Shown piece after piece: positions 11,398-64,000 of a DNA stretch of 64,000 nt. How positions within the stretch are numbered: the stretch's first letter is position 1; the number at the start of each line of letters is the position of its first letter. A program made the position numbers and the translations under genes. The notes beneath the pieces were generated by a model that saw only the letters and a list, made by a program, of their open reading frames with translations, made no database searches and was not told the DNA's origin. Source of the DNA: Dictyostelium discoideum (Eukaryota); the NCBI GenBank assembly GCA_000004695.1, contig CM000153.2, positions 1,344,001 to 1,408,000 of the forward strand, read 5' to 3'.

Positions 11398-18059
<6,662 letters not shown>

Positions 18060-18169
18060 CTAATAATGATAAAAAAATGGAAAAAAAAATATTAGCTTTA
18101 TAGGGAAACATTTTGGAAAAAAAAAAAAAAAAAAAAAAATTTGGGTTTTTCTCCCAATTATAATATTAC

Positions 18170-26477: not shown

Positions 26478-29364
26478 TTAACTAAAATTAAAATCTTCTT
26501 TTAATTTTAATAAATAGTTTTTTAATTGAACATCAGATAGTTTTGAAAATTTTAAATTTAATAATTTTTGAAGTAATTGATAAGAATCTCTAGATGGATG
26601 ATGGTATTGATTAATGGATTGATTATTTGTATTTGGATTGATTTGGTTATTGTTTGATTTTGATTCTAAAAGATTTCTTATTGTTTTAGCAGATTGAATT
26701 ACCTTTGAATCAATTCCAGCCAATTCAGCAGTTTCAACACCATAACTATCAATTGATGAAACACCTTCACTAAAGAGATAATTATATTTTAAACCAGACG
26801 AATCATCTTTGGAAACTTGAAAGTGATAAACTCTAATATTTGGATAAAATGTAGCAAGGTTTAGTAATTGTTGATAGTGAGTTACAAAGAGAGTGTAACA
26901 ACCAATCATTGATAGATGTTCACTAATTGACCATGCAATTGAAGATCCATCCATATTTGAGGTACCTCTACCTAATTCATCAATAATAACCAAACTACTT
27001 TCAGTTGTATTCTCCAAGATGTAAGAGATTTCTTTCATTTCCGTCATAAAAGTACTAGCATTTGATTGAATATTATCTGATGTGCCAAGTCTACTAATGA
27101 TTTGATCAACAATTGGTACAGTTGCAAACTCAGCAGGTAAAAAATAACCAATGTGAGCTACTATAGTCAAGAGGGCTACTTGTTGGATGTATGTAGATTT
27201 ACCAGACATATTACAACCATGAATTAATTGAAATGAGGCTGTTTCATTGATTAAAGTATCATTTGGTACAAAACAAGTTGAAAATGATTCTTTTTTCTTT
27301 GATTTCTTTAATTGTAATGGATGATAACCAGATTTAATAGCCAATGGACCTTTACCATTAAATATTTCAGGACAAACACTTTGATCCAATTGTAGTGAAT
27401 ATAATGCACCAGATACCAAGAAATCTAATAATGAAATTGATTCTGAAATATTATAAAGCTCAGAAATATGTGAACGATAGAATTCAATTAACTTTTCAAT
27501 CGATTGTGCTGAAAGTATAATAATCTCTTCAAATACTTCTCTACTTCTTCTTGATAGTGAAGTTAATTCTTCACTAAATAAATAGTACTTTTGATTTCTA
27601 TAGCTTGAACGAACAAATACATTTGGTAAATGAAATAATGCTTTATTCTTACATGGTAACGAATAATAATAACCTTTAGTTTGGCAATGTTGTAATTTTA
27701 ATTGTGGTAATTTAAATTGTTCTTTATAATATTTTGTTAATTTATTAATATCATCAGTAATTTCTTTATAGGTTTTCTTACAAACATCTAATAAACCATT
27801 TACACCATCTTTTATATACATTATAATTTTATAATTAATTTTATTAACTTGTTGTTGTTGTTGTTGTTGTTGTTCTTTTTGTTGATGTTGTTGATCTTGT
27901 TTTGATAATTGAAAATTTAAATTTACATTTAAAACTTTTGAACTTTCTTTAATTAAAATATTATTTGTTTCATTATTTAATTTTCCTTTAATTAAATTTA
28001 ACATTGGATTATCACAAATTGTACCACTATTTAATAGATTTGAAATTTTTGGTAAAAGTTCAAATATATTTTTAAAATCAATAAAACATTTAATTGAAGT
28101 TTCAATTGATTTTATTGTAACTTGTTTATTTTGTTGTGAAAATAGTAATAAGGTTTTATCGATATCTTGAATCTTTGATAATAATGGTGTTAAAGTAAAG
28201 ACAACTCTTTGATTTGAAAGTAATTGTTTAATTGCATTTTGACGATGTTTAATAGTTTCAAAATCATTTGATGGTTGTACTATTGCACTAATTAATAGTC
28301 TTGAACCTTGTGATGTTGATGTATTATTAATTGATTGATATAATGTACAATTTCTACTACCATCTTTAGAACTATGAATTAATTCCAAGTTTTTTATTGT
28401 TTCTGCATCTATTTGCATTGAATTTTCACTTCCTGAATACTTTATACGAATACAATTCTTTACAAACATTATACCATCTTGTTCTAAATATTTAATTAAT
28501 GCATTGAAACTTGATAGTGATAAAACTTTATCTTTTGTAAACTTTTCAATTATTGATATTTTATCAATTAAACAATATTGATTCATTAATGATATACCAT
28601 CATTTTCATTAAATAGTTTCTTTATAATTGGTATAATCTTTACATTTGGATATGCATTTTCAATTAATTTAACCATTTCTCTGTTTTGTTCAATTGGTGG
28701 TATAACTATTATTGAAGGATTTAAAATATATAATTTTGTATACAAATGAAAATAAGTTTGAGAATCACAAAATTGACCAGTTTCAATTTCACCACTTTCA
28801 ATATTATATGAAGAGTAACCAATTTCTCTAGTTCTATTTTCACAAATTGCAACAATTGAACCACTATGATTTTTAGTTTTATTTTTTATTATATTACTAT
28901 TAATTGAATTATTTTCATTATTAACTGAACCAGATTTTCTTAATGAATTTTGAATTGTATTTGGAAATGTTTTATTTATCTTTGGTGTATTTATAGTTGA
29001 AGTGGATTTTTTAGAATTTAAGAGTGAACTCATTGGTTTCGAGTTAGTATTATTATTTTTTGATAATGATGGAGGGGTTTTCATTGGAATATTAATTTTT
29101 GGTTTTGAAATTAATAATAAATCATTTTCATCAATATCTTTACAAATTGGATTATAGTTTATAAGTTTGTGATTTGATTTTGAAGTTTGTTCAAATGATT
29201 TGGAATTGATTGCTGAGGTTTTATTATTTTCTATATTTTTAATTATTGTTGGTTCAAAATCAAAATCTAAATCATCTAAATCACTCTCGTTGTCATTTTC
29301 ATCACCAAAATCATTTAATGTAATTTCTTTATAAATATAATTATTGTAGGAATTTTTATCAGCT

Positions 29365-29398
<34 letters not shown>

Positions 29399-29603
29399 CA
29401 TCATCATCAAATTCATAATCATCATATATACATTCAATATCATCATTATCGGCATTATTATTATTATTTATTATTGTGTCATTGTTTTTTTGAGTATTAT
29501 TTAAAAATTGTGGTTGCTGTGGTATGTGTGGTGCTGGTGGTTTGTTGTGGGTATAATTTATTTTTTTATAAAAAGATATATTCTTTGAGATACCGTTATT
29601 CAT
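26478..29603 (-). CDS. msh4: MutS homolog 4 (MSH4), meiosis-specific mismatch-repair paralog.
   Basis: No N-terminal mismatch-binding domain. The MSH4-specific N-region is IVAICENRTREIGYSSYNIESGEIETGQFCDSQTYFHLYTKLYILNPSIIVIPP (human: [53 protein letters not shown]). The ATPase region is HGCNMSGKSTYIQQVALLTIVAHIGYFLPAE...SNASTFMTEMKEISYILENTTESSLVIIDELGRGTS...TLFVTHYQQL (Walker A/B, MutS signature). The C-terminus YQLLQKLLNLKFSK...LKEDF resembles the human MSH4 tail. Confidence 0.8.
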
Positions 29604-50957: not shown

Positions 50958-51544
50958 ATGAGTAACTCAAATAATAATAGCTCAAGTGGTAATCATAATA
51001 GTACAACAATAAATAACCCTAAAGTTAATGTATATAGCAATATACCAAATTCAACAACATACACATATGGCAGCGGAGGAGGTGGAACACTAAGTGGAAA
51101 TAATACTAATAATAACAACACCAACAATAACAATAATAATAATAATAATAGTAGTGGAGATAATAAAAACCATAGTCCTGTGACCTCAGCAACAGACCGT
51201 TTAACAAAAATGGATATAGAAGAGAAATGGGATAACAAAAATTATGAAAAAGATGAAAGAGAAAAATCACCTCTATTTCATATCTTGGCCAGTAATTTAA
51301 ATAGTTTCGGTAATTTCAAAGTTCCGAGTACATTTTCTTTAACACCACCAGAACCAAACAAACAACAACAACCACAACAACAACCACAACAACAACAACC
51401 ACAACAACAACAACCACAACAACAACAACCACAACAACAACAACAACAACAACCACAACAACAACAACAACCACAACAACAACTACAACAAAATAACCAA
51501 CAACAACAACAACAACTACAACAACAACAACTACAACAACAACT

Positions 51545-51593
<49 letters not shown>

Positions 51594-52691
51594 AAACAAC
51601 AAAAACAACAACAACAACAACAACAACACCTACATCAAGATGGTATTGTAAATACACCAAGTACAACACAAACTTCTACTACAACCACAACAACTACAAC
51701 TACAACAAATCCTCATACATCTGGTTTATCATTACAACATGCACATTCATCATATACACCTTCAAATGTATTACATTCGCCAACACATTTCCAATCAAGT
51801 TTACCAACAAGATTGGATACAAATCCAATAACAACACCAATCAGACAACAACAACAGTCTCAACAACAACTTCAACAACAACAATTACAACAAATTCCCC
51901 CACCAACTGTAAATTCATTCTTTTTACCACCACCAGTCAATGCAAGAGAAAGATTAAAAGAATTTAAACAAATTCGTGTTATTGGTACTGGAACATTTGG
52001 AAAGGTATATTTAATTCAAAACACCAAAGATGGGTGTTACTATGCCATGAAGTGCTTAAACAAGGCATACGTTGTACAATTGAAACAAGTAGAGCATTTA
52101 AATTCAGAGAAATCAATTCTCTCATCCATTCATCATCCATTCATTGTAAATTTGTATCAAGCTTTTCAAGATGAAAAGAAACTGTACCTCCTCTTTGAGT
52201 ATGTCGCAGGCGGTGAGGTGTTTACTCATTTAAGAAAATCAATGAAGTTTTCAAATAGTACCGCCAAGTTTTACGCAGCAGAGATAGTGTTGGCATTGGA
52301 GTTTTTACATAAACAAAATATAGTTTACAGAGATTTAAAACCAGAGAATTTGTTGATCGATAATCAAGGTCACATTAAAATCACTGATTTTGGTTTCGCA
52401 AAACGGGTAGAAGACAGAACTTTCACCCTTTGTGGTACCCCTGAATATTTGGCACCTGAAATCATTCAAAGCAAAGGTCATGGTAAAGCGGTCGATTGGT
52501 GGGCACTTGGTATTCTAATATTTGAAATGTTGGCAGGTTATCCACCTTTCTATGATGATGATACCTTTGCAATCTATAATAAAATTTTGGCTGGTAGAAT
52601 CACTTTTCCATTAGGTTTTGATGTTGATGCTAAAGATTTAATTAAAAGATTATTAACTGCTGATAGAACTCGTAGATTGGGTGCTTTAAAG
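50958..52691 (+). CDS. pkaC: cAMP-dependent protein kinase catalytic subunit PkaC, exon 1 (long N/Q-rich N-terminal extension plus most of the kinase domain).
   Basis: ATG at 50958. A roughly 250-nt imperfect (CAA)n (51352-51612) encodes polyQ. The kinase domain reads FKQIRVIGTGTFGKVYL...YAMKCL...YRDLKPENLLID...ITDFGFAK...TLCGTPEYLAPE...DWWALGILIFEMLAGYPPF (AGC/PKA type). Donor tta aag|gtaatt. Confidence 0.9.
51352..51612 (+). repeat. Imperfect (CAA)n/(CAG-free) trinucleotide repeat of about 260 bp encoding the polyQ/QP region of PkaC.
   Basis: Directly visible caacaacaa with periodic cca/cta interruptions. Confidence 0.85.
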
Positions 52692-52792
52692 GTAATTCTA
52701 TACAAATATTATTTATTTATTATTCATTTATTTATTTATTTTAATTAATAATTTATTAATAATTTTTTATTCTCAATTTTTATTTATTTTAG

Positions 52793-60869: not shown

Positions 60870-61050
60870 TATAAAATTGCAAAGTTTTATCATCACGTAA
60901 TACTTTTCCTTTATAAATTACTCTTTGAAGTGGGATTGAAATTGAAGATTTGGCTTCAATTAATTTTTTAAGTTCTGGTACAGTAGTTTCTAAAGTTACA
61001 CCTTCAATACTATAAATTGTACCATCTAATTTCTTTATATTAATATTCAT
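60870..61050 (-). CDS. Ubiquitin-like-domain protein (BAG6/Scythe-like or ubiquilin-like), exon 1 (first three-quarters of the UBL domain).
   Basis: MNINIKKLDGTIYSIEGVTLETTVPELKKLIEAKSSISIPLQRVIYKGKVLRDDKTLQFY has the ubiquitin fold consensus (I.VK...G....I.V....TV..LK..I........QRLIY.GK.L.DD.TL..Y). Donor tat a|gtatgt (phase 1). Confidence 0.65.
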
Positions 61051-61159
61051 TTTTTTTTATTTTTTTTTATTTTTTTTATTTTTTTACTTTATGAATAATT
61101 TTTTATTATTTAAATAAAAATAATAATAATAAATAGGGGTAAATATATATAATAATAAC

Positions 61160-61194
<35 letters not shown>

Positions 61195-61246
61195 AATTAT
61201 GTATAATATAAAAATAATTTGGAAATGAAAATTTTTTAAATGGAAG

Positions 61247-61289
<43 letters not shown>

Positions 61290-61296
61290 TGGTGTT

Positions 61297-61341
<45 letters not shown>

Positions 61342-61613
61342 TTTTTTATTTTTTATTTTTTATTTTTTCAAAAAAAAAAAAAAAAACTCAATTTTTTTTT
61401 TTGCATTTATTTTTCGTTCAATTAAGTTTTTTGATCAACATCCATCATTGTTGGTTGAAAATAAAATTATTTTATTTTTATAATAAATTTCAATTTTTAA
61501 TCAAAAAAATAAAATAAATATAATTATTTTTATTTATTACTTTTTTTTTTTTTTTTTTTTAATAAGTAAATAAAATAAAATAATATAAAATAAAATAAAA
61601 TAATAAAAAAAAA

Positions 61614-63482
61614 ATGAATAGAGTAAAATCTGTTTATTTAAATTCAAATAAATATATTAAAGGTGGAAATAATAGATTTTTAAATAATAATGGTATAATT
61701 AATAATTTTAAAAATGGGAATCAAATAAATCAAATTAAATCAATTAGTAAACTTAGTTGTGGTGGTAGTGGTGGTAATAATAATAATAATAGTTTATCAA
61801 TAATTAATAATGGATATAAAATTAGAGAAATTAGTTTTTTAAGTAATTTATTTAGTAATTTTAAAAATTTAATGCAACAAGAAGAAGGTTATGAAAAGAT
61901 GGTAGATGATATCGATAGAATCTTTTTAGGTGGTAGAATTGCAAAAAAGAGAGCATTGGAGGAGGAAGAGAAAAGAAAGATGGAGGAAAAGATGGAAGCA
62001 TATTCAAAATCAGCGGAGCAACGTGCAAAGGAAGAGGTTGGTCTCTCAGAGGAGGAGATTGCCGAGAGAAGAAAGGCAGAACAACTTCTCTACGAAGAGT
62101 TACTTAAAGAGAAAGAGAAAACCGAAGGTAAACAACAAGCTCATAAAATGCCAACAGAAAAGGAAGAGGTGTCACAAATAGTTGCCGATGGTAAATTATT
62201 AAACCCCGAACAAGATATTGAATTGACCAAAATCAAGAATGATAATTTAGGTATTCGTCCATTACCAATGGACCCAGATCGTGAAGAACCATCCTTTGAG
62301 GAATGTCAAGATTTCAGTTTTTTAGAAAACTTTGAAGTCGTTGATTATGCCCATTTCGAGGAGGAACCAAGAGAGGGTGAAACCGAAGAGGAAATGTGGG
62401 AAAGACAGTGGGCAGATGGTTTTCTTACATTTGAAGAACAAGGATTAATGTTACACGAGGCATTAAAGAAACCACGTGAAAAATTTAGAGAACTCGACCA
62501 AGAGGCACGTACAATCGGTGGTTTAAGCTATCCAGAGATCGATTGGGATAGCTTTATGTACACCAAAGAAGAGGTCGAAGCATTACCACCTCAATTAATG
62601 GATTTCATTATGACCAAAGCAAGATTTGAAAATCCTGAAATCTTTGAAGAGTCCAGATCGAAAGCCGATGATGTTTTATCAATTGGTAGAGAGTATACCG
62701 GTCATCCATTGGACAGACCTGATAATCCAAGTTTATATCCTGTAGTTTCAAAATTGTATAGCAATGAATTCGTGGGTGAACGACCAAGCTCAAAGAGGAG
62801 GGAGCAGCAGGAGGAGGATGATGGCGAGGAAGAGTTGCTTTTCCAAGATATGAAACCATTCTCTGGATCTCTCTTTAAAAATAGATCACCTTATCCATGG
62901 TATAAAGATTTAGATTATCACATTCCAAGATTATTATGTGCCATTGTTCATCTTGGTAGATTCTCATCACCACCAAATTACTATCTTATGAGACTTTTTG
63001 AAAAAAGTAAAAGAGAAATGTATAATAGAAATGCAGCTCATTTATTCAAGGTCTCTGCACCCGGTATGGATTATAAAAAAGTACTTTCAGAGGCTCTTTT
63101 ATATTTCCTTCCAAATTTCTTTTATCACTTTTTCCAAGGTAATCTAAGAGAATTAGAACAATATACAACTGAAGGTGGTTTAGAAAGAGTTACAACTATG
63201 ATTTCAAGATTAGAAGGTCCAAATAGAATTTTATGTGGTGATACAATTAAAGTTGATGGTATGAAAGCTTTTAGGTTTGCTCCAAATGATGATGGTGGTA
63301 TTGGTTTAGTATTTATTACTTCAGTATTCCATACACTTGCTTATAGAGATTATAATGGTGATATGATTCCATTGAAACCTGAATTTGAAGAAACTATGTA
63401 CAAAACTAAATTCAAAGTTGGTTTACGTTGTGATCCTTCAAAAAATGATTTTGGTTGGACTGTTTTTGCTCTTAGTAGAGGT
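61614..63482 (+). CDS. Glu-rich hypothetical protein with atypical G/C-ending codon usage, exon 1.
   Basis: ATG at 61614. An Asn-rich, basic N-terminus (mitochondrial-targeting-like?) is followed by a strongly acidic, coiled-coil-like region and a globular C-terminal region (PWYKDLDYHIPRLLCAIVHLGRF...GDTIKVDGMKAFRF...NDFGWTVFALSRG). Donor ggt|gtaagt at 63483. Codons such as GAG, AAG, CTC, GCC, ATC and TAC are over-used compared with all other genes in the window. Confidence 0.55.
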
Positions 63483-63635
63483 GTAAGTTTTTTTTAATAT
63501 TAAAAATTAATAATAATAATAATAATAACAAAATAATTTTAAATCTAAAAATATTTATTAACCTTTTTATTTATTCATTTATTTATTTATTTATTTATTT
63601 ATTTATTATTAAAAAAAAAAAAAAAAAAACAACAG

Positions 63636-63920
63636 CCCGCCCAAAATATGGAGAAGTTTATGAAAGAAGCAGAAAGAAAGAAAAAATTAAAAGAAGAAAA
63701 AGAGAGAAGAGAAAGAGAAGCAAAAGAGAAAGGAGAAAAAATAAAAGAAATCGGAAATGAAAATGAAAATGAAAATGAAAATAAAAATAAAAATGAAAAT
63801 GAAAATGAAAATGAAAACGAAAACGAAAATGAAAATGAAAATGAAAATGAAAAAGAGAAAGAGAAAGAGAAAGAGAAAGAGAAAGAGAAAGAGAAAGAGA
63901 AGGAGAAAAAAGATAACTAG
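63636..63920 (+). CDS. Glu-rich hypothetical protein, exon 2 (K/E-rich tail with (EN)n and (EK)n repeats).
   Basis: Acceptor caacag|ccc gcc at 63634-35, phase 0. The exon reads PAQNMEKFMKEAERKKKLKEEKERREREAKEKGEKIKEIGNENENEN...EKEKEKEKEKKDN*. The GC-rich cccgccc just after the acceptor matches the unusual composition of exon 1. The intron is 153 nt. Confidence 0.5.
   Translation, partial: PAQNMEKFMKEAERKKKLKEEKERREREAKEKGEKIKEIGNENENENENKNKNENENENENENENENENENEKEKEKEKEKEKEKEKEKEKKDN
63765..63900 (+). repeat. Hexanucleotide coding repeats: (GAAAAT)n encoding (EN)n, then (GAGAAA)n encoding (EK)n.
   Basis: gaaaatgaaaatgaaaat... then gagaaagagaaagag... in the last exon of the 61614-63920 gene. 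Confidence 0.9.
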
Positions 63921-64000
63921 TGGAAAAAAAATAAAATTAAAATAAATAAATAAAAAAAAAAAAAAAGAAAAGGATCAATATATAAATAAATAAACAGCCA

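Follow-up and report, generated by a model that had tools for sequence, protein, structure and literature searches.

A segment-limited shift towards G- and C-ending codons in a vertically inherited Dictyostelium gene for a predicted Tim44-like protein, possibly driven by selection on silent sites

The window analysed here, a stretch of 64,000 nucleotides of Dictyostelium discoideum (GCA_000004695.1, contig CM000153.2, positions 1,344,001 to 1,408,000 of the forward strand), contains a gene (61614-63920, + strand) for a protein of 717 amino acids, which an earlier note had singled out for a codon usage and GC content unlike those of every other gene in the window. The atypical part of the gene is a single block of 330 codons (segment A, residues 91-420, 61884-62873), which encodes the acidic middle of the protein and has shifted to G- and C-ending codons. 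The gene itself is a vertically inherited nuclear gene of D. discoideum, and the codon counts and alignments show directly how far the shift extends, how large it is, which way it runs and in which species it occurs. As to its cause, we favour, at about even confidence, selection on the silent sites of segment A alone; that selection rather than a bias of DNA repair is the driver is what we infer from the kind of codon that was gained.

The coding sequence was binned by 30 codons and then divided into four parts, namely a leader, segment A, segment B (residues 421-623, the remainder of exon 1) and exon 2. Segment A has a GC content of 0.400, with 0.548 at first codon positions (GC1) and 0.339 at third positions (GC3; 0.139 for C, C3, and 0.171 for G, G3), against a GC content of 0.265 and a GC3 of 0.120 in the 25 other open reading frames (ORFs) of the window pooled (13,404 codons); the earlier estimate of about 40% against about 25% is thereby borne out. 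Under the codon usage of the window, the amino acids of segment A predict a total GC of 0.334 and therefore account for about half of the excess, owing to the abundance of Glu, Asp, Gly, Ala and Arg; silent-site choice supplies the rest. Indeed, the GC3 predicted in the same way is only 0.153 (observed z = 10.9), so that the GC3 calculation proposed in the earlier note places the third positions well above amino-acid expectation. The codons lying far over background are GAG (30 of 65 for its amino acid), AAG (10/27), ATC (6/13), ACC (6/9), CTC (4/28) and GCC (4/16); GCG (1/16) and TAC (2/9), which had also been listed as heavily used, are not among them. Segment B is ordinary (GC3 0.133, z = -0.9) and the leader has a GC3 of 0.03. 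Because of the former, the anomaly, which had been drawn across 61900-63480, ends at about 62873, some 600 bases earlier. The coding part of exon 2 (63636-63917) reaches a GC3 of 0.245 and a G3 of 0.163, mostly due to repeated GAG. Within segment A, the GC peak lies in the 90-base bin 62784-62873 (GC3 0.57), where positions 62790-62843 include the codons AGG AGG GAG CAG CAG GAG GAG; this piece has no counterpart in the alignment with D. citrinum, D. firmibasis, D. dimigraforme or D. purpureum.

Sharp and Devine reportedly described in 1989 how codon usage is adapted in D. discoideum genes of high expression. We compared segment A with published codon counts for this species, covering all genes, the 1,000 with the highest expression and the 1,000 with the lowest (Table S3 of PMC8321536), using a log-odds index corrected for amino acids in which 0 is average usage and 1 the usage of the top 1,000 expressed genes. 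The index is 1.03 for segment A, 0.14 for segment B, -0.82 for the leader and 0.10 for exon 2, and bootstrapping separates segment A (95% interval 0.57-1.47) from segment B (-0.19 to 0.45) without overlap. Background windows of 100 codons have a mean of -0.17 (standard deviation 0.48, maximum 1.12). Removing Glu lowers the index of segment A to 0.82, and removing Lys as well lowers it to 0.71; usage reaches or exceeds the top-1,000 level for Asp, Gly, Ile, Leu, Asn, Ser and Thr. Like highly expressed genes (PMC8321536), segment A thus shows a shift to C-ending codons and to AAG and GAG, and its index equals theirs. Unlike them, it covers only 330 of 717 codons, its GAG fraction is 46% instead of 15.5%, and several amino acids are unadapted. 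The proposal in the earlier note that the composition reflects translationally optimal codons under high expression is therefore supported in part, for segment A but not for the C-terminal part of the same mRNA (0.14). The published tables give a GC3 of 0.142 for the D. discoideum genome and of 0.206 for the top 1,000 expressed genes (C3 0.137, G3 0.069; PMC8321536); applied to the amino acids of segment A, top-1,000 usage predicts a C3 of 0.104 and a G3 of 0.066, against the observed 0.139 and 0.171.

That no other gene of the window resembles this one proved true at the scale of the segment and too strong below it. The highest GC3 in any 330-codon window of the other ORFs is 0.236, and high-complexity windows of 60 codons from other genes average 0.146, with a 95th percentile of 0.313 that four of the five windows of segment A exceed. 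Nevertheless, the kinase domain (51948-52478) of an ORF that we take to be pkaC (50958-52748, + strand) has a GC3 of 0.32 across 177 codons, a shorter stretch of similar kind, so that the GC3 of our gene is not unique in the window. Patches of 60-150 codons with a GC3 of 0.27-0.30 also occur in at least six other ORFs, including a gamma-tubulin-complex gene, an Ndc80-family gene and the upstream neighbour. In the pkaC ORF, both C3 and G3 are raised in the kinase domain (index 0.49) and GC3 is near 0 in the Q/N/T-rich N-terminal half (index -0.21); the other GC3-rich patches also lie within conserved Pfam domains (GCP_C_terminal, Ndc80_HEC, Pkinase). A region of another kind, 12001-15000, lies within an ORF of 2237 codons (11398-18111, - strand) and has a GC content of 0.32-0.36 with a GC skew of +0.36 to +0.59 on the + strand; because its GC3 is ordinary (0.12), repetitive amino-acid content is the probable reason.

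Several local causes of the GC excess were considered. The context of Glu runs was rejected as the source of GAG, since segment A has more GAG than the background within runs (20/36) as well as at isolated Glu residues (10/29), the background fractions being 0.23 in runs and 0.16 otherwise; moreover, codons other than those of Glu and Lys are likewise enriched (GC3 0.26 vs 0.10). An overlapping or antisense gene was also discarded, the candidate ORFs being merely of chance size (40-83 amino acids). No Rfam family matches 61000-64000 at an expectation value (E) of 1 or less, and segment A folds no better as RNA than its shuffles (z = -0.48; segment B, z = +0.62). Constraint at the nucleotide level is in any case disfavoured because silent divergence in segment A is higher, not lower, than elsewhere in the gene.

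Comparison with other Dictyostelium species gives the direction of the shift (Table 1). Among the four close species (D. discoideum, D. citrinum, D. firmibasis and D. dimigraforme), a change was assigned by parsimony to a terminal branch when the other three agree. On the D. discoideum branch, third positions of segment A changed from AT to GC at 17 of 137 sites and from GC to AT at 1 of 25; the corresponding counts are 0/113 and 1/14 in segment B, and 14/397 and 3/34 in the upstream neighbour gene, which served as control. The AT-to-GC rate of segment A is thus above that of segment B (p = 4e-5) and that of the control (p = 4e-4). The D. citrinum branch behaves likewise (15/141 vs 11/398 in the control, p = 8e-4), so that AT-to-GC changes outnumber GC-to-AT changes by 17:1 and 15:2 on the two branches and occur per site at three to four times the control rate on both. 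The branches of D. firmibasis and D. dimigraforme show no AT-to-GC excess, gains and losses being near balance (11:7 and 10:7). These counts indicate that the GC3 of segment A is rising, not decaying, in the D. discoideum/D. citrinum lineage. First and second positions, by comparison, show no AT-to-GC excess (12/272 in segment A vs 9/183 in segment B, p = 0.82). D. purpureum was tried as an outgroup for silent sites and abandoned, its GC3 state being independent of the state in the other species.

Table 1. Third-position GC content and adaptation index of segments A and B in five Dictyostelium species (index of all species computed with D. discoideum tables).
Species	GC3, segment A	GC3, segment B	Index, segment A	Index, segment B
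D. discoideum	0.34	0.13	1.03	0.14
D. citrinum	0.30	0.17	1.36	0.41
D. firmibasis	~0.27	~0.20	0.95	0.59
D. dimigraforme	~0.22	~0.17	0.79	0.10
D. purpureum	~0.20	~0.20	1.01	0.76

The identity of the gained codons is what most separates the possible causes. When only strictly silent AT-to-GC changes are counted, all 28 of those in segment A on the four terminal branches lead to codons preferred by highly expressed genes; 50-57% of possible moves would do so. In the control gene the figure is 30 of 50, and the gains include GGG, TCG, GTG, CAG, CCC, CCG, ACG and CTG. Divergence is also unusual: pairwise silent divergence (dS) among the four close species is 0.64-0.88 in segment A and 0.22-0.43 in segment B, at similar non-silent divergences (dN) of 0.19-0.26 vs 0.14-0.24. 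For five neighbouring ORFs, D. discoideum and D. citrinum differ by a dS of 0.16-0.44 and a dN of 0.02-0.10. The dN of our gene for the same pair is 0.18 (dN/dS about 0.4; 0.65 for the Tim44-like part described below), which makes its product a fast-evolving protein.

We thus propose that silent-site selection may act on the approximately 1 kb that encodes the acidic middle only. Three patterns would fit: the codon usage of segment A is at the highly expressed level in all five Dictyostelium species, each inferred silent AT-to-GC change reaches a codon favoured by highly expressed genes, and the shift has grown stronger along the branches of D. discoideum and D. citrinum. It is tempting to speculate that a segment with 20% Glu profits from the use of both Glu tRNA pools; a GAG fraction of 46% would then be accounted for.

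A number of observations weigh against selection confined to segment A. Ala, Pro, Gln, Arg, Phe, Val and Tyr are all used there below the top-1,000 level, GAG makes up three times the share of Glu codons that it has in highly expressed genes, and G-ending codons taken together reach 2.6 times the expectation for such genes. Eleven codons of the segment are of kinds that highly expressed genes avoid (AGG, CAG, GCG, GTG, TCG and CCC, plus the A-ending CGA), where genome usage predicts 3.8; 4 of these 11 lie inside the D. discoideum-specific insertion. The classical codon adaptation index (CAI), whose calculation the earlier note had suggested, is also unfavourable: with the top 1,000 genes as reference, segment A scores 0.54, the lowest value of the window (0.54-0.78 along the coding sequence of the gene), because GAG carries a low weight. 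We judged this index misleading and relied on the log-odds index, since highly expressed genes too mostly use A/T-ending codons. A further difficulty is that adaptation would be limited to one segment of a single mRNA, that is, at one expression level, and we know of no rule that predicts such partial adaptation. Weaker codon preference has been published for the vicinity of gene ends only (PMC8321536). Finally, the branch counts are small and rest on parsimony over four species, the index of the other species was computed with D. discoideum tables, and under AT-biased mutation parsimony over-infers AT-to-GC changes, as the 14:3 ratio of the control gene illustrates, an effect estimated to account for fewer than one of the 17 changes in segment A.

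Two other forces could raise GC3 in the segment. GC-biased gene conversion at a local recombination hotspot of about 1 kb in the D. discoideum/D. citrinum lineage, in which heteroduplex repair in favour of G/C lifts both GC content and substitution rate, would produce a tract like this one, of about 0.9 kb with fairly sharp edges (the D. discoideum-branch changes fall at residues 116-407, with zero in 421-623), in which G- and C-ending codons are both enriched, silent divergence is two to three times that of the rest of the gene in every species pair and also above that of the neighbours, and the three- to fourfold rate is confined to two sister branches. Conversion tracts of mammals, birds and yeast are similarly about 1 kb long and lineage-specific, with raised GC3 and silent divergence. 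Segment A differs from them in having gained preferred codons only, with zero changes to CAG, AGG or other codons of the NNG type, which conversion should fix just as often, where 20 of 50 in the control are non-preferred, and in showing no effect at non-silent sites in a protein whose dN/dS is 0.3-0.65; besides, the flanking non-coding DNA is extremely AT-rich, and a published survey of the whole D. discoideum genome reported biased conversion to be absent (PMC8321536). We therefore regard conversion as a rather improbable cause. Slightly less improbable, in our opinion, is adaptation of the whole gene through high expression, the remaining parts looking unadapted because of repeats, gene-end effects or recent relaxation. 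Segment A is at the top-1,000 level, the indices of segments A and B are close in D. purpureum (1.01 and 0.76) and stand at 0.95 and 0.59 in D. firmibasis, codon preference drops near gene ends (PMC8321536), and the scarcity of AT-to-GC changes in segment B of D. discoideum (0/113 vs 14/397 in the control, p = 0.047) is what a recent relaxation might leave. Against this, the C-terminal part and the tail together span some 300 codons, beyond the expected end effect, and the C-terminal part has an index of 0.14 in D. discoideum and 0.10 in D. dimigraforme. Plain high expression of the whole gene thus fits poorly, because segment B and the tail are unadapted in D. discoideum and GAG stands at three times its frequency in highly expressed genes.

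Two further explanations we consider far less probable. Passive decay of an ancestrally GC-richer stretch under AT-biased mutation, with no force at work at present, would account for the high silent divergence of segment A, as many GC sites mutating to AT would yield it, and between two strains of D. citrinum, which show 26 differences only, the silent changes of the segment are 6 GC-to-AT against 2-4 AT-to-GC (a tiny sample). It is very unlikely all the same, the branch ratios of 17:1 and 15:2 and the raised rate running the other way, and the GC3 of segment A reaching its peak in D. discoideum and its low point in the species further away. The least credible explanation is the one raised in the earlier note, a comparatively recent acquisition or domestication, whether of the gene or, by replacement with foreign or diverged DNA, of the segment; we regard it as refuted. 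It can invoke the atypical composition itself and the GC-rich insertion specific to D. discoideum. However, that composition is limited to 330 of the 717 codons and the enrichment is common to D. citrinum; segment A aligns residue by residue with its orthologues; and the profile search described below found no homologues outside the dictyostelids. Neither is the segment likely to be a swapped-in piece, because on the D. discoideum branch first and second positions changed equally inside (25/453) and outside it (18/296 in segment B).

The evidence for vertical descent comes from orthologous loci of D. purpureum (L003), D. citrinum (L004 and L006, two assemblies), Polysphondylium violaceum (L005), D. 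firmibasis (L007) and D. dimigraforme (L008), which with D. discoideum make six dictyostelid species; the close loci were reached through the downstream gene, which encodes a type-11 methyltransferase. This methyltransferase gene directly follows the orthologue in four of the species (D. citrinum, D. firmibasis, D. dimigraforme and D. purpureum); in the first three of them the orthologue lies, as in the window, downstream of a minus-strand gene of about 790-830 codons. The D. purpureum scaffold with the orthologue also carries pigA, at a distance of ten accession numbers. AT-rich spliceosomal introns are present in every copy, that of the window being of the host type (GTAAGT...AG). Elsewhere in the window, the ORF 26481-29603 (- strand) is identical to XP_638826.1 (DDB_G0283957, AX4), and a pigA gene fragment was matched exactly too.

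The case has some interest beyond this gene. It is clean and well bounded, with a sharp difference of codon usage inside one mRNA whose direction can be measured across sister species, and it could be useful because the species is a proposed test system for telling selection from biased conversion. As a candidate for foreign DNA it has no importance, and to the specialist it may be a modest curiosity of little surprise. It also draws attention to an uncharacterised, dictyostelid-only protein with a predicted Tim44 fold, which may interest those working on mitochondrial import or ribosome tethering in Amoebozoa.

The protein consists of four parts: a presequence-like basic leader, an acidic helical middle, a Tim44-like (NTF2-fold) domain and a repetitive tail. 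The first three agree with what the earlier note described as an N-rich basic leader, a strongly acidic coiled-coil region and a globular C-terminal half that it could not place. The leader has an isoelectric point (pI) of 10.2 and carries nine Lys or Arg and no Asp or Glu in residues 1-70, the first acidic residue being residue 72, and the N-terminus is M-x-R/K in all orthologues; such a positively charged leader devoid of acidic residues is consistent with a mitochondrial presequence. Segment A (20% Glu, pI 4.5, net charge -39) is modelled as long helices, with a predicted local distance difference test score (pLDDT) of 60-80, interspersed with low-confidence parts predicted to be disordered. 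Taken as a single sequence, the protein has no Pfam match (E <= 1) and no PDB match. An exhaustive family profile search of 1.84 billion representatives returned 8 proteins, all of dictyostelid type, with named members from D. purpureum (34% identity to our protein), D. citrinum and P. violaceum. Compared with PDB, the profile of these eight sequences places TIM44 chains at four of the best five positions (E = 0.003-0.06, with one motif aligned), the matches being weak for both human TIM44 (E = 0.003) and yeast Tim44 (E = 0.02-0.06). The UniRef label of the D. purpureum and P. violaceum orthologues is 'Tim44-like domain-containing protein'. The AlphaFold model of the C-terminal 198 residues contains a domain with a pLDDT of 75-94 that has the alpha+beta NTF2-like fold and the additional N-terminal helices of Tim44. 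The full-length model, of low confidence except for the C-terminal domain and some helices, was left out of the fold search. We conclude that the half left unplaced probably contains a Tim44-like domain, and that the protein, as judged from profile and model, is a putative member of the Tim44-like fold superfamily in a fast-evolving family found in dictyostelids only. A role at the mitochondrial inner membrane would be the most likely one.

Tim44 is usually about 430-450 amino acids long. The present protein has 717, belongs to a family restricted to dictyostelids, and is only 12-15% identical to Tim44, the subunit of the TIM23 presequence translocase and import motor (PF04280; PDB 2cw9, 2fxt, 3qk9, 8e1m). 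One-to-one orthology with Tim44 is argued against, as far as sequence comparison can tell, because the search gave zero non-dictyostelid matches and the protein that a published survey names as Tim44 of D. discoideum is another one, EAL64247 (PMC5747110). A survey covering D. discoideum reports mL45 to be near-universal (PMC6367999); our protein scores below its Tim44 level when compared with mL45/Mba1 and has no sequence-level match to it. mL45/Mba1 shares the Tim44 fold and serves as the inner-membrane tether of the mitochondrial ribosome. A more speculative picture, to which we attach a low probability, is that segment A carries a local and lineage-specific bias in the fixation of silent changes that differs from ordinary expression-linked codon selection (a conversion hotspot in a genome reported to lack them, or selection for Glu-tRNA balance). 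Independently of this, the protein may be a third kind of Tim44-fold protein, confined to dictyostelids, with a separate function at the mitochondrial inner membrane.

The layout of the gene is given in Table 2. Its two exons are joined by a single intron, and the splice junction (..RG|P..) is also used by the annotated D. citrinum proteins P0017 and P0023. The run cccgccc, which had been pointed out immediately behind the acceptor, is there as CCC GCC (Pro-Ala) and is not conserved, D. citrinum having CCT TGC. Two public read-assembly contigs are identical to the window at the gene. The exact 717-residue spliced product has no match in a collection of 15 billion proteins, where the AX4 model may differ or the entry be unindexed. 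A second intron was lost precisely in D. discoideum and is kept in D. purpureum, D. citrinum (both assemblies), D. firmibasis and D. dimigraforme.

Table 2. Features of the gene in the window (all coordinates are window positions).
Feature	Position	Strand	Remarks
Exon 1	61614-63482	+	opens with ATG 61614
Leader, residues 1-90, N-rich, basic, with presequence-like features	61614-61883	+	GC3 0.03, pI 10.2
Segment A, residues 91-420, acidic, mostly helical, excess of G/C-ending codons	61884-62873	+	GC 0.400, GC3 0.339, index 1.03
D. discoideum-specific insertion or rewritten piece SSKRREQQEEDDGEEELL	62790-62843	+	GC peak of segment A
Segment B, residues 421-623, ordinary codon usage	62874-63482	+	GC3 0.133
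Predicted Tim44-like (NTF2-fold) domain	coding start ~63050, in exon 1	+	
Site of intron loss, Gly521/Gly522 (TTEG|GLERV)	63176/63177	+	window uninterrupted there
Sole intron, 153 bases, GTAAGT...CAG, phase 0	63483-63635	+	reading frame restored across splice
Exon 2, low-complexity K/E/N-rich tail, stop TAG	63636-63920	+	(GAAAAT)n and (GAGAAA)n repeats; GC3 0.245

Gene structure and annotation vary among the orthologues. D. purpureum has an extra intron after '..IEIAK' that none of the four close species possesses. The two D. citrinum assemblies differ in their annotation: one (L004, 8281-9915 and 10001-10681) splits the gene into two proteins of 544 and 186 amino acids, having read through the intron with its long (AAT)n run, and the other gives a single model of 698 amino acids that includes an apparently spurious additional 3' intron. 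The tail is encoded at 63757-63905 by microsatellite-like repeats, (GAAAAT)n followed by (GAGAAA)n, which give (EN)n and then (EK)n, and the type and length of the repeats vary among all species compared. On the 5' side, the 600 bases before the start codon have a GC content of about 10%, and runs of about 35-45 A together with T-rich blocks occupy 61240-61400.

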